Source of the DNA: Escherichia coli
GTDB lineage: Bacteria; Pseudomonadota; Gammaproteobacteria; Enterobacterales; Enterobacteriaceae
Direction: 5' to 3' (one strand)
DNA length: 64,000 bases
Assembly: GCF_003334405.1 (NCBI RefSeq)
Contig: NZ_QOWM01000001.1
Under the pieces are notes generated by a model. The model was given only the letters and a program-made list of their open reading frames with translations. It was not told the origin of the DNA and ran no database searches. The translations under genes were made by a program, and so were the position numbers. This document shows, piece by piece, positions 1-43,457 of this stretch (position 1 is the stretch's first letter; each line of letters opens with the position of its first letter).

Positions 1-727
1 AGAACTGATTGTCGAAGTGATTGACGGAACGCTCTCACCGCTCGCGCAGGCATTGATGCAAACCGGTTTGCTGCCCGCAGGTGTTACGCCCGAAATCATT
101 ACGCTTTCTGGCGGCGTGGGCGAATGTTATCGCCACCAGCCCGCCGACCCGTTCTGTTTTGCCGATATTGGCCCGCTGCTGGCAACTGCGCTGCATGACC
201 ATCCGCGCCTGCGTGAGATGAACGTACAGTTTCCGGCGCAAACCGTGCGCGCCACGGTGATTGGCGCGGGCGCGCATACCCTTTCGCTCTCTGGCAGCAC
301 AATCTGGCTTGAGGGCGTACAACTGCCGCTGCGCAATTTGCCGGTGGCGATCCCGATTGATGAAACGGATCTGGTGGGGGCCTGGCAACAGGCGCTGATT
401 CAGCTGGATCTTGATCCCAAAACTGACGCGTACGTGCTGGCGCTTCCCGCCTCGCTGCCTGTGCGTTACGCCGCGGTACTGACGGTCATCAACGCGTTGG
501 TCGATTTCGTCGCGCGTTTTCCGAATCCGCATCCCCTGCTGGTGGTGGCCGGGCAGGACTTTGGTAAAGCTCTGGGCATGTTGTTGCGCCCACAGCTACA
601 ACAACTCCCGTTGGCAGTCATTGACGAAGTGATTGTCCGCGCGGGGGACTATATCGACATTGGTACGCCTCTTTTTGGCGGATCGGTTGTGCCGGTGACG
701 GTGAAATCACTCGCATTTCCTTCCTGA
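1..727 (+). CDS. eutA: ethanolamine utilization protein EutA (ammonia-lyase reactivase), 5'-truncated at window edge
   Basis: Open frame runs from the window start to a stop at 725-727, 12 bp upstream of eutB; position and order match the eut operon (eutA-eutB-eutC-eutL-eutK-eutR). Identity by synteny and recollection, not by search. Confidence 0.85.
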   Translation, partial: ELIVEVIDGTLSPLAQALMQTGLLPAGVTPEIITLSGGVGECYRHQPADPFCFADIGPLLATALHDHPRLREMNVQFPAQTVRATVIGAGAHTLSLSGSTIWLEGVQLPLRNLPVAIPIDETDLVGAWQQALIQLDLDPKTDAYVLALPASLPVRYAAVLTVINALVDFVARFPNPHPLLVVAGQDFGKALGMLLRPQLQQLPLAVIDEVIVRAGDYIDIGTPLFGGSVVPVTVKSLAFPS

Positions 728-738
728 GGGAACGACTT

Positions 739-2100
739 ATGAAACTAAAGACCACATTGTTCGGCAATGTATATCAGTTTAAGGATGTAAAAGAGGTGCT
801 GGCTAAAGCCAACGAACTGCGTTCGGGGGATGTGCTGGCGGGCGTCGCAGCGGCAAGCTCACAGGAGCGCGTGGCGGCAAAGCAGGTGTTGTCGGAAATG
901 ACCGTAGCGGACATCCGCAATAATCCGGTGATTGCCTATGAAGATGACTGCGTGACGCGGCTGATTCAGGACGATGTTAACGAAACGGCCTACAACCAGA
1001 TTAAAAACTGGAGCATCAGCGAACTGCGTGAGTATGTGCTGAGCGATGAAACCAGCGTGGACGACATTGCCTTTACCCGCAAAGGGCTGACCTCGGAAGT
1101 GGTCGCGGCGGTAGCGAAGATTTGCTCCAACGCGGACCTGATCTACGGCGCGAAGAAAATGCCGGTAATCAAAAAGGCCAATACCACCATCGGTATTCCG
1201 GGCACCTTTAGCGCCCGTTTGCAGCCAAATGACACCCGTGACGACGTGCAAAGTATCGCCGCGCAAATCTACGAAGGGCTTTCCTTCGGGGTGGGCGATG
1301 CGGTGATCGGCGTTAACCCGGTGACTGACGACGTGGAAAACTTAAGCCGCGTGTTGGATACCATCTATGGCGTGATCGACAAATTCAACATCCCAACTCA
1401 GGGCTGTGTACTGGCGCACGTCACCACCCAGATCGAAGCGATCCGTCGTGGCGCACCGGGCGGGCTGATTTTCCAGAGTATCTGTGGCAGCGAAAAAGGG
1501 CTGAAAGAGTTTGGCGTGGAGCTGGCGATGCTCGACGAAGCGCGCGCAGTGGGCGCGGAGTTCAACCGTATCGCCGGGGAAAACTGCCTCTACTTCGAAA
1601 CCGGACAAGGCTCTGCGCTATCCGCTGGCGCTAACTTCGGCGCAGACCAGGTAACGATGGAAGCACGTAACTACGGGCTGGCGCGTCATTACGATCCGTT
1701 TATCGTCAACACCGTGGTCGGCTTTATTGGGCCGGAGTATCTCTACAACGACCGCCAGATTATCCGTGCTGGCTTAGAAGATCACTTTATGGGCAAGCTG
1801 AGCGGCATCTCTATGGGCTGTGACTGCTGTTATACCAACCACGCTGACGCTGACCAGAACCTCAACGAAAACCTGATGATCCTGCTCGCCACCGCAGGCT
1901 GCAACTACATCATGGGGATGCCGCTGGGTGATGACATCATGCTCAACTACCAGACCACCGCATTCCACGATACCGCCACTGTGCGTCAGTTACTCAACCT
2001 GCGCCCGTCACCGGAGTTTGAACGCTGGCTGGAAAGCATGGGCATTATGGCAAACGGTCGCCTGACCAAACGGGCGGGCGATCCGTCACTGTTCTTCTGA
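739..2100 (+). CDS. eutB: ethanolamine ammonia-lyase heavy chain (453 aa)
   Basis: 453-aa ORF with an RBS; followed 20 bp later by the 295-aa light chain; length and sequence consistent with E. coli EutB. Confidence 0.95.
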   Translation: MKLKTTLFGNVYQFKDVKEVLAKANELRSGDVLAGVAAASSQERVAAKQVLSEMTVADIRNNPVIAYEDDCVTRLIQDDVNETAYNQIKNWSISELREYVLSDETSVDDIAFTRKGLTSEVVAAVAKICSNADLIYGAKKMPVIKKANTTIGIPGTFSARLQPNDTRDDVQSIAAQIYEGLSFGVGDAVIGVNPVTDDVENLSRVLDTIYGVIDKFNIPTQGCVLAHVTTQIEAIRRGAPGGLIFQSICGSEKGLKEFGVELAMLDEARAVGAEFNRIAGENCLYFETGQGSALSAGANFGADQVTMEARNYGLARHYDPFIVNTVVGFIGPEYLYNDRQIIRAGLEDHFMGKLSGISMGCDCCYTNHADADQNLNENLMILLATAGCNYIMGMPLGDDIMLNYQTTAFHDTATVRQLLNLRPSPEFERWLESMGIMANGRLTKRAGDPSLFF

Positions 2101-2120: not shown

Positions 2121-3008
2121 ATGGATCAAAAACAGATTGAAGAAATTGTACGCAGCGTGATGGCGTCAATGGGACAAGCGGCCCCCGCGCCGTCAGAAGC
2201 AAAGTGCGCCACCACCAACTGTGCGGCACCGGTGACCTCGGAAAGCTGTGCGCTGGATTTAGGTTCCGCTGAAGCAAAAGCGTGGATTGGTGTTGAAAAT
2301 CCGCATCGCGCAGACGTATTAACAAAACTGCGCCGCAGCACCGTGGCCCGCGTTTGTACCGGTCGTGCCGGTCCGCGTCCACGTACGCAGGCGCTGCTGC
2401 GTTTCCTGGCCGATCACTCTCGTTCGAAAGATACCGTACTGAAAGAAGTGCCGGAAGAGTGGGTGAAAGCGCAGGGCTTGCTGGAAGTACGCTCTGAAAT
2501 TAGCGACAAAAATCTCTACCTGACTCGCCCGGATATGGGCCGCCGCCTGTGTGCAGAAGCTGTTGAAGCGCTGAAAGCGCAGTGTGTTGCCAATCCGGAC
2601 GTACAGGTCGTTATTTCTGATGGCCTGTCAACTGATGCGATCACCGTGAACTACGAAGAGATCCTGCCACCGCTGATGGCGGGCCTGAAACAGGCCGGGC
2701 TGAAAGTCGGTACACCATTCTTTGTTCGTTATGGTCGCGTGAAGATTGAAGATCAGATCGGTGAGATCCTCGGCGCGAAAGTAGTGATCCTGCTGGTGGG
2801 CGAACGTCCGGGGTTGGGTCAGTCAGAAAGCCTCTCCTGCTACGCCGTTTACTCGCCGCGTATGGCGACCACCGTTGAGGCCGATCGCACCTGTATCTCT
2901 AACATTCACCAGGGCGGCACGCCGCCGGTTGAAGCCGCAGCCGTCATTGTGGATTTGGCGAAACGTATGCTGGAGCAGAAAGCATCCGGCATCAACATGA
3001 CCCGATAA
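2121..3008 (+). CDS. eutC: ethanolamine ammonia-lyase light chain (295 aa)
   Basis: 295-aa ORF immediately downstream of eutB; conserved operon context. Confidence 0.95.
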
Positions 3009-3017
3009 GGAGGCATC

Positions 3018-3677
3018 ATGCCAGCTTTAGATTTGATTCGACCGTCTGTCACCGCTATGCGGGTGATTGCCTCCGTTAACGCCGATTTTGCGCGTGAACT
3101 GAAATTGCCGCCGCATATTCGTAGCCTCGGTCTGATTTCTGCCGACTCCGATGACGTCACCTACATTGCCGCTGATGAAGCGACCAAGCAGGCGATGGTG
3201 GAAGTGGTGTATGGCCGCTCGCTATATGCGGGCGCTGCACACGGCCCGTCACCGACTGCCGGTGAAGTGCTGATTATGCTTGGTGGGCCAAACCCGGCGG
3301 AAGTGCGTGCAGGTCTGGATGCGATGATTGCGCATATTGAAAATGGCGCAGCTTTCCAGTGGGCTAATGACGCGCAAGATACGGCATTCCTGGCACATGT
3401 AGTTTCGCGTACCGGTTCTTATCTCTCATCAACCGCCGGGATCACGCTTGGCGATCCGATGGCGTATCTGGTGGCACCGCCGCTGGAAGCGACCTATGGC
3501 ATTGATGCAGCCCTGAAGTCTGCCGACGTACAGCTGGCGACCTATGTCCCGCCACCGTCTGAAACCAACTACTCGGCAGCATTTTTAACCGGTAGCCAGG
3601 CAGCGTGTAAAGCAGCCTGTAACGCCTTTACCGATGCAGTGCTGGAAATCGCGCGTAATCCAATCCAGCGTGCGTAA
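3018..3677 (+). CDS. eutL: bacterial microcompartment shell protein EutL (219 aa)
   Basis: 219-aa ORF tightly coupled to eutC (9-bp gap); expected position in the eut operon. Confidence 0.92.
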
Positions 3678-3689
3678 CGGAGGTTGCCG

Positions 3690-4190
3690 ATGATCAATGC
3701 ACTGGGATTGCTGGAAGTGGACGGCATGGTCGCCGCGATAGATGCAGCGGATGCCATGCTCAAAGCAGCTAACGTTCGTCTGCTCAGTCACGAAGTGCTT
3801 GACCCTGGTCGCTTAACGCTGGTGGTGGAAGGCGATCTGGCGGCGTGTCGTGCGGCGCTGGACGCAGGTTGTGCTGCCGCGATGCGTACCGGGCGTGTCA
3901 TCAGCCGCAAGGAGATCGGTCGGCCAGACGATGACACCCAGTGGCTGGTTACTGGCTTTAACCGCCAGCCGAAGCAACCCGTAAGGGAACCCGACGCGCC
4001 AGTTATCGTCGCGGAATCTGCTGACGAGTTGTTGGCGCTGTTAACATCAGTACGTCAGGGAATGACGGCAGGAGAAGTGGCTGCCCACTTTGGCTGGCCG
4101 CTGGAAAAAGCCAGAAATGCGCTCGAACAGCTCTTTTCTGCCGGGACGTTACGTAAACGCAGTAGTCGTTATCGTCTCAAGCCCCATTAA
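3690..4190 (+). CDS. eutK: microcompartment shell protein EutK (166 aa)
   Basis: ORF track starts at TTG 3684; the ATG at 3690 with GGAGG 6 nt upstream gives the expected 166 aa (MINALGLLEVDGM...). Confidence 0.88.
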   Translation: MINALGLLEVDGMVAAIDAADAMLKAANVRLLSHEVLDPGRLTLVVEGDLAACRAALDAGCAAAMRTGRVISRKEIGRPDDDTQWLVTGFNRQPKQPVREPDAPVIVAESADELLALLTSVRQGMTAGEVAAHFGWPLEKARNALEQLFSAGTLRKRSSRYRLKPH

Positions 4191-4235: not shown

Positions 4236-5288
4236 ATGAAAAAGACCCGTACAGCCAATTTGCACCATCTTTATCATGAACCCTTACCCGAAAACCTGAA
4301 GCTCACGCCGAAGGTCGAAGTGGATAATGTTCATCAACGACAGACAACGGATGTCTATGAACATGCTTTAACGATTACCGCCTGGCAGCAGATTTACGAT
4401 CAGCTGCATCCGGGCAAGTTTCATGGTGAATTTACGGAAATTCTACTCGATGATATTCAGGTTTTTCGTGAATACACCGGTCTGGCGCTGCGTCAGTCGT
4501 GCCTGGTCTGGCCGAACTCGTTCTGGTTTGGCATTCCGGCGACGCGCGGTGAGCAGGGATTTATCGGTTCGCAATGTCTGGGAAGCGCGGAAATCGCCAC
4601 CCGCCCTGGTGGCACTGAATTTGAACTGAGCACGCCGGATGATTACACGATCCTGGGCGTGGTGCTTTCTGAAGATGTCATCACCCGGCAGGCTAACTTT
4701 TTGCATAACCCGGATCGGGTATTACATATGTTGCGTAACCAGTCGGCGCTGGAAGTGAAAGAGCAGCATAAAGCCGCGCTGTGGGGCTTTGTCCAACAGG
4801 CGCTGGCGACGTTTTGCGAGAATCCGGAAAATCTCCATCAGCCTGCAGTGCGAAAAGTGCTGGGGGATAATTTGCTAATGGCGATGGGGGCCATGCTGGA
4901 AGAAGCGCAACCAATGGTGACGGCGGAAAGCATCAGTCATCAGAGTTACCGTCGATTGCTTTCCCGCGCCCGTGAATATGTGCTGGAAAACATGTCCGAA
5001 CCGGTGACGGTGCTGGATTTGTGTAATCAACTGCATGTCAGCCGCCGCACGCTACAAAACGCGTTTCACGCTATTTTAGGCATTGGCCCGAACGCGTGGC
5101 TGAAACGCATTCGCCTGAACGCCGTACGCCGCGAACTGATAAGTCCGTGGTCGCAAAGTATGACGGTAAAAGACGCCGCCATGCAGTGGGGATTCTGGCA
5201 TCTGGGGCAATTTGCCACGGATTACCAGCAGCTGTTTTCCGAGAAGCCGTCACTGACGCTGCATCAGCGGATGCGGGAGTGGGGGTGA
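4236..5288 (+). CDS. eutR: AraC-family transcriptional activator of the eut operon (350 aa)
   Basis: 350-aa ORF with a C-terminal AraC-type HTH region; last gene of the eut cluster. Confidence 0.93.
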
Positions 5289-40943: not shown

Positions 40944-41019
<76 letters not shown>

Positions 41020-43424: not shown

Positions 43425-43457
43425 AAAAAAACCGGGGAATTATCCCCGGCTTTTTTA
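43425..43457. terminator. bidirectional intrinsic terminator between pdeA and nupC
   Basis: Hairpin ccgggga-attat-tccccgg flanked by A7 and T6. Confidence 0.7.

Follow-up and report, generated by a model that had tools for sequence, protein, structure and literature searches.

An uninterrupted eutA-eutB junction in Escherichia coli that matches the empty attachment site of IntZ-type islands

Results

The eutA-eutB junction is contiguous

In the 64,000-nucleotide stretch of Escherichia coli DNA analysed here (the window), eutA is followed directly by eutB. We consider it highly probable that this is an ordinary uninterrupted junction, that is, an empty attB for IntZ-type islands, in a natural strain that is neither MG1655 nor W3110, and that most likely no island has ever occupied the site. 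The window covers the last five and a half eut genes, with eutS to eutH and the promoter lying outside it. The order eutA-B-C-L-K-R is present, and EutB, EutC, EutL, EutK and EutR each scored above the curated NCBIfam cutoff. The features are as follows:

1-727, plus strand: 3' part of eutA, ethanolamine ammonia-lyase reactivating factor, entering from the left window edge; TGA at 725-727
720-727, plus strand: attB core CTTCCTGA, 8 bp, including the eutA stop; single copy in the window
726-729, plus strand: Shine-Dalgarno-like GAGG, overlapping the eutA stop, 9 nt 5' of the eutB ATG
728-738, plus strand: eutA-eutB spacer GGGAACGACTT, 11 nt, by direct reading
739-2100, plus strand: eutB, ethanolamine ammonia-lyase large subunit (NCBIfam NF011649, 664.7 bits, cutoff 554, E 6e-200)
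2121-3008, plus strand: eutC, ethanolamine ammonia-lyase small subunit (NCBIfam NF003971, 339.7 bits, cutoff 230)
3018-3677, plus strand: eutL, microcompartment shell protein (NCBIfam NF011934, 399.9 bits)
3690-4190, plus strand: eutK, microcompartment shell protein (NCBIfam NF012010, 361.5 bits)
4236-5288, plus strand: eutR, AraC-type activator of the eut operon (NCBIfam NF007522, 789.4 bits)

The reading frame from 17 to 727 encodes the C-terminal half of EutA, matching positions 232-467 of the 467 in profile NF007991 (E 6e-167); its score falls under the NCBIfam full-length cutoff because the gene is truncated by the window edge. The listed open reading frame of eutK begins at a TTG at 3684, the profile match starts from residue 3, and the K-12 annotation gives the gene 501 nt.

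Read directly, the junction is cgcatttccttccTGAgggaacgacttATGaaacta, and positions 700-760 run ggtgaaatcactcgcatttccttccTGAgggaacgacttATGaaactaaag... The first-pass annotation of this DNA had described eutA and eutB as contiguous, and this is confirmed: only an 11-nt spacer separates the TGA at 725-727 from the ATG at 739-741. Its distance of 12 bp counts from the last base of the stop to the first base of the start, and the untranslated spacer itself (728-738) is 11 nt long. This spacer was unchanged across every occupied and unoccupied genome that we compared, and the GAGG at 726-729 that precedes it is a putative ribosome-binding site for eutB. We found no integrase gene, phage gene or additional DNA between eutA and eutB, and the boundary is of the kind usual between genes inside an operon. 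The gene order is that of the 17-gene operon eutSPQTDMNEJGHABCLKR of Salmonella enterica and most E. coli (e.g., Nissle 1917), and the intergenic spacers in the window are short, as is typical of co-transcribed genes and as in the uninterrupted eut operon.

The junction carries a single copy of the CPZ-55 attachment core

The annotation of MG1655 (NC_000913.3) bears out the statement, made in the first reading of the window, that the prophage CPZ-55 lies between eutA and eutB in that strain. There, eutB occupies 2557318-2558679 and eutA 2565481-2566884, and CPZ-55 is annotated exactly between them at 2558691-2565480 (6,790 bp, ~6.8 kb), comprising intZ to yffS (b2442-b2450) with intZ adjoining the eutB-side end. 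IntZ of MG1655 matches the tyrosine integrase model NCBIfam PRK09692 (E 4e-72). When the window was aligned with both MG1655 junctions, CTTCCTGA was the sole sequence common to the two ends of the prophage. The eutA-side junction reads ...CATTTCCTTCCTGA / ATGCGG (in longer form ...CGCATTTCCTTCCTGA / ATGCGGTATTC...) and the eutB-side junction reads ...GATTCTTCCTGA / GGGAACG (in longer form ...CATCGATTCTTCCTGA / GGGAACGACTTATG...), the slash marking the boundary. In agreement with this core, the 8-bp duplication at the CPZ-55 site has been published, on the opposite strand, as 5'-TCAGGAAG-3' (PMC6379469).

The site in the window thus resembles the attB of CPZ-55 in MG1655 in its position after the eutA stop, its core and the 11-nt spacer before eutB, but differs from it in being unoccupied and in lying in a non-K-12 background with ~13 SNPs in 64 kb. 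Since the core occurs once in the window and carries no insert, the attachment site is unoccupied. Moreover, positions 700-760 correspond to the product of precise excision, being found exactly in W3110, while the TOP10 junction was identical in alignment. Because its sequence equals that of sites that islands have demonstrably occupied, the site in the window is a putative substrate for IntZ integration.

We considered and rejected two extensions of the core. A longer att duplication was suggested by a BLAST match of the eutB-side end back to window position 705, which needs four gaps (AATCA-TCG-ATT--CTTCCTGA versus AATCACTCGCATTTCCTTCCTGA); without gaps the att match extends over 8 bp only, or 9 of 10. 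The arm diverges further in the diverged islands described below (CACTCATCACTT), the island-type att arm being GAAAAATGYCAMTCATC...TTCTTCCTGA, and the sequence beyond the 8-bp core represents at most a resemblance to an integrase arm. The sequence TTTCC[TTCCTGA]GGGAA forms a dyad about the core with 4 of 5 matches, which is too weak for integrase-binding half-sites.

The empty site is the usual state in E. coli

We surveyed 5,426 complete E. coli genomes with a 701-nt query across the junction, which matched in 5,424 of them. The eutA-eutB match was contiguous in 4,965 of these 5,424 genomes (91.5%). An intZ-type gene directly adjoins eutB in 394 of the complete genomes; CPZ-55 proper, at an identity of at least 99%, is present in 213, and about 180 natural genomes have diverged islands at the same core. 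Among the matches listed, the carriers of CPZ-55 bear mostly K-12 or laboratory names (MG1655, BW25113, J53, MC1061, MC4100, NEB10-beta, WG1). Other split matches include IS-mediated rearrangements, as in strain 102651. Congruently with the published occupancy of 8% of 638 genomes (PMC6379469), this survey upholds the description of the junction as a known variable insertion point.

One carrier, T142A (pig farm, China), has CPZ-55 junctions identical to those of MG1655, and throughout the region its protein accessions are those of K-12; rather than a farm isolate, this may be a laboratory K-12 strain or a contaminant.

Diverged islands occupy the same core in natural isolates

We compared three natural isolates whose islands have diverged from CPZ-55 and encode IntZ homologues, namely 1504D004 (island of 12.4 kb), TB354 (11.4 kb) and EP91B (9.6 kb). 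All three use the same core CTTCCTGA at the same position as CPZ-55: the islands start directly after the eutA TGA and end ...TTCTTCCTGA before GGGAACGACTT-ATG, and the core is the only sequence common to both ends in each of them. In TB354 and EP91B, intZ and its flank are ~85-88% identical to K-12, and the IntZ homologue of 1504D004 matches PHROG 1 (tyrosine integrase, E 2e-69).

The cargo of the islands varies and includes tape-measure-like and small-terminase-like proteins, a module of gadC, murI and a decarboxylase fragment, and a YafO-type toxin. The larger islands (loci L005, 11423-13603, and L010, 12516-14696) encode a 726-aa protein that matches the PHROG 1538 tape-measure families (E 4e-103), which suggests that they are decayed siphovirus-type prophages. 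Despite the small-terminase-like protein, no capsid or large terminase genes were recognisable in these larger islands, which may be either decayed siphovirus prophages or satellite-like elements; our literature search for CPZ-55 as a phage satellite found no paper.

As a separate observation, a gadC-like antiporter gene, a gene annotated as murI and part of a gene for a pyridoxal-dependent decarboxylase lie together in TB354 (L009, 12385-15425) and in strain 102651 (L006, 21675-24715). IS1, IS5 and IS903 flank this module, an acid-resistance-like cargo inside an eut-site island.

Several K-12 stocks lack CPZ-55

The absence of the prophage is not peculiar to strains outside K-12. In W3110 (NC_007779.1), which is without CPZ-55, eutB (2562764-2564125) and eutA (2564137-2565540) are separated by the same 11-nt spacer. 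Published reports describe the loss of CPZ-55 from W3110 and EMG2 (PMC9997739), its loss from ER2796 by "precise excision" (PMC4444293) and its absence from RV308 (PMC4239343) and XL1-Blue (PMC11148124). The TOP10 assembly CP080620 is also contiguous at eutA-eutB, and the 37.4 kb next to the junction show 100% identity with MG1655, so that its junction is what precise excision from K-12 leaves behind. The site in the window is identical to the one left in W3110, TOP10 and ER2796 after loss of the prophage. Natural excision of CPZ-55 occurs at a frequency of less than 1 per 100,000 cells (under 1e-5 per cell; PMC3105296).

These results limit what the junction says about the source of the DNA. 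The first-pass annotation had concluded from it that the strain was other than K-12 MG1655 or W3110, and had added that the same 12-bp spacing in a K-12 reference would make the observation moot. W3110 has precisely that spacing. Because W3110 and other K-12 derivatives are without CPZ-55, a contiguous junction excludes MG1655, as had been claimed, but is compatible with W3110 and with K-12 at large. The further description of the operon as ancestral is likely to be right, yet precise excision leaves an identical sequence (e.g., in TOP10), so that the junction gives no proof of it.

Stocks of the same name vary in their CPZ-55 content: NZ_CP084899.2 (W3110-P) and NZ_CM143902.1 (W3110) carry it and NC_007779.1 (W3110) does not. 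NEB10-beta (NZ_CP053604.1) carries the prophage and TOP10 (NZ_CP080620.1) is without it. The TOP10 assembly has xapR adjoining rpsT and an rtT element, pointing to a rearrangement or to misassembly. K-12 AG100 (NZ_LN832404.1), also without CPZ-55, has a perfect 90-bp tandem duplication (L002, 3259-3438) homologous to window positions ~653-742. It takes in the last part of eutA, the spacer and the bases just ahead of eutB, and the additional copy is entered in RefSeq as an 'EutA' fragment of 24 aa. Site-specific excision at the 8-bp core does not account for this duplication, which is either real or an assembly artefact.

The sequence points to a close natural relative of K-12 as the source

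Apart from IS186 and the tRNA arrays, the whole window is collinear with K-12, with ~13 substitutions over 64 kb (identity 99.98%). In the first ~38 kb, the same seven substitutions separate it from MG1655, TOP10 and W3110 (2325, 8124, 9452, 14339, 19499, 33181 and 38058), together with one 1-nt indel relative to MG1655 and W3110; TOP10 aligned without gaps to window position 38113. The first mismatch to any of the three is at 2325, and the eutA part is without difference. Compared with MG1655, the window has no CPZ-55 and no IS186, only one tRNA-Val and one tRNA-Ala gene, and the seven SNPs and one indel just listed. W3110 shares the junction, but is separated from the window by ~13 SNPs and has IS186 and tRNA copies that are absent from it.

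Several natural isolates, of cattle, wastewater and human origin, show 100% identity with positions 1-25000 of the window and are contiguous at the junction, and K-12 differs at five of the SNPs within this segment. The SNPs shared against all three K-12 genomes, the structural differences and the perfect natural matches together indicate a close natural relative of K-12 and not a K-12 stock. Judged from its sequence, the DNA stems from a natural strain that is phylogroup-A-like, differs very little from K-12 over this region and is neither MG1655 nor W3110.

Part of the structural difference probably reflects the assembly. At 38090-38244 the window has one tRNA-Val(UAC) and a tRNA-Lys, where K-12 has valU-valX-valY-lysV, and at 40944-41019 it has one tRNA-Ala(GGC), where K-12 has alaX-alaW. 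The IS186C element (IS186/IS421) found between nupC and pdeA in MG1655 and W3110 is absent from ~43435-43446. The closest complete genome, USMARC-51408 (100% over positions 1-25000), has three Val and one Lys tRNAs, two Ala tRNAs, and an IS186/IS421 between nupC and pdeA in the opposite orientation. Given the full arrays of USMARC-51408, the shorter ones of the window look like repeat collapse; they are probably due to the collapse of tandem repeats in a short-read assembly, real deletions being possible. The missing IS186 reflects either an empty IS target or an element dropped by the assembler.

Discussion

The junction described here is correctly read as uninterrupted, and it is ordinary: the empty site is the usual state of E. 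coli, found in about nine genomes in ten, and the site, its 8-bp repeat and its prevalence of ~8% have already been published. Because 91.5% of genomes are in the empty state, a site that was never occupied is much more likely than one that was vacated, and we infer the former as the most likely history. That the lineage once held CPZ-55 or a related IntZ island, precisely excised to leave a single CTTCCTGA, is unlikely in our judgement, even though the window is nearly K-12 in sequence (~13 SNPs in 64 kb), CPZ-55 has been lost repeatedly and independently with exactly this sequence as the result (W3110, TOP10, RV308, ER2796, XL1-Blue, EMG2), and excision has a measured frequency, below 1e-5 per cell (PMC3105296). 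Against such a restored junction stands the distribution of the prophage, since CPZ-55 proper is found in 213 genomes and its carriers among the matches listed are mostly K-12 laboratory derivatives, while the natural isolates that are 100% identical to the window over 25 kb are contiguous; with emptiness the default, the extra event is not needed.

That the window comes from a K-12 derivative of the W3110 or TOP10 type after loss of CPZ-55, and not from another strain, we find hardly credible. The identical junction in W3110 and TOP10 and the 99.98% identity to K-12 are consistent with it, and the absence of IS186 and the short tRNA arrays could be assembly collapse, given that USMARC-51408 has both. 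However, the seven SNPs of the first 38 kb are common to the comparisons with MG1655, TOP10 and W3110, the density of ~13 SNPs over 64 kb is several times that of the heavily mutagenised ER2796 (249 changes genome-wide; PMC4444293), and the segment in which K-12 has five SNPs is matched perfectly by several natural isolates. The same apparent collapse of repeats, in the tRNA arrays and at the place of IS186, could be taken to mean that the strain has an island and that the assembler joined eutA to eutB across it; the probability of this is close to negligible. The islands are unique sequence whose ends share 8 bp, far too short for a mis-join, so that an assembler would break the contig and not skip the island, and the junction is base for base that of thousands of complete genomes. 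An ordinary junction at an empty attB, in a natural strain close to K-12, is therefore the reading that we retain, and none of our observations speaks against the site being empty.

The comparisons show part of the mechanism. IntZ-type islands recombine at CTTCCTGA just after the eutA stop, leaving the core at both island ends. Insertion preserves the reading frame of eutA and disturbs neither the 11-nt spacer nor the putative ribosome-binding region of eutB, and exit can be precise. The predicted cost, drawn from gene orientation and the literature, is that 7-12 kb of oppositely oriented DNA would come to lie between the upstream promoter and eutBCLKR; in BW25113, the insertion of CPZ-55 prevents functional eut expression (PMC7617246). 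With a single core and no insert, eutA and eutB of the window could be transcribed together, as they are in Salmonella and in the majority of E. coli.

This arrangement resembles those of e14 in icd and DLP12 at argU, in which a tyrosine integrase likewise acts at the 3' end of a gene with the coding sequence preserved, and in which precise excision is also seen in laboratory stocks. It differs from them in the length of the duplication, which is 8 bp here, 163 bp in the case of e14 and 47 bp in that of DLP12 (PMC6379469), and in its cost, which at the eut site would be polarity on the downstream operon genes and not damage to the target gene.

One may go further and imagine the IntZ-type islands as a reversible on/off switch of ethanolamine utilisation, in the manner of 'active lysogeny', with the window in the 'on' state: polar silencing of eutBCLKR would follow from integration at the core and be undone by precise excision. 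Precise excision, its recurrence in laboratory stocks and the ~180 natural genomes with diverged islands are consistent with this, but the measured frequency of excision is very low (less than 1e-5 per cell; PMC3105296) and we regard such a switch as very unlikely.

Beyond annotation bookkeeping, the importance of the finding is small. The presence or absence of CPZ-55 is a poor marker for K-12, W3110 and many K-12 stocks having lost the prophage, and the attB core at 720-727 offers a means of scoring the integration hotspot elsewhere in the species and beyond this genome. For the strain itself, the uninterrupted junction means a potentially functional distal eut operon.
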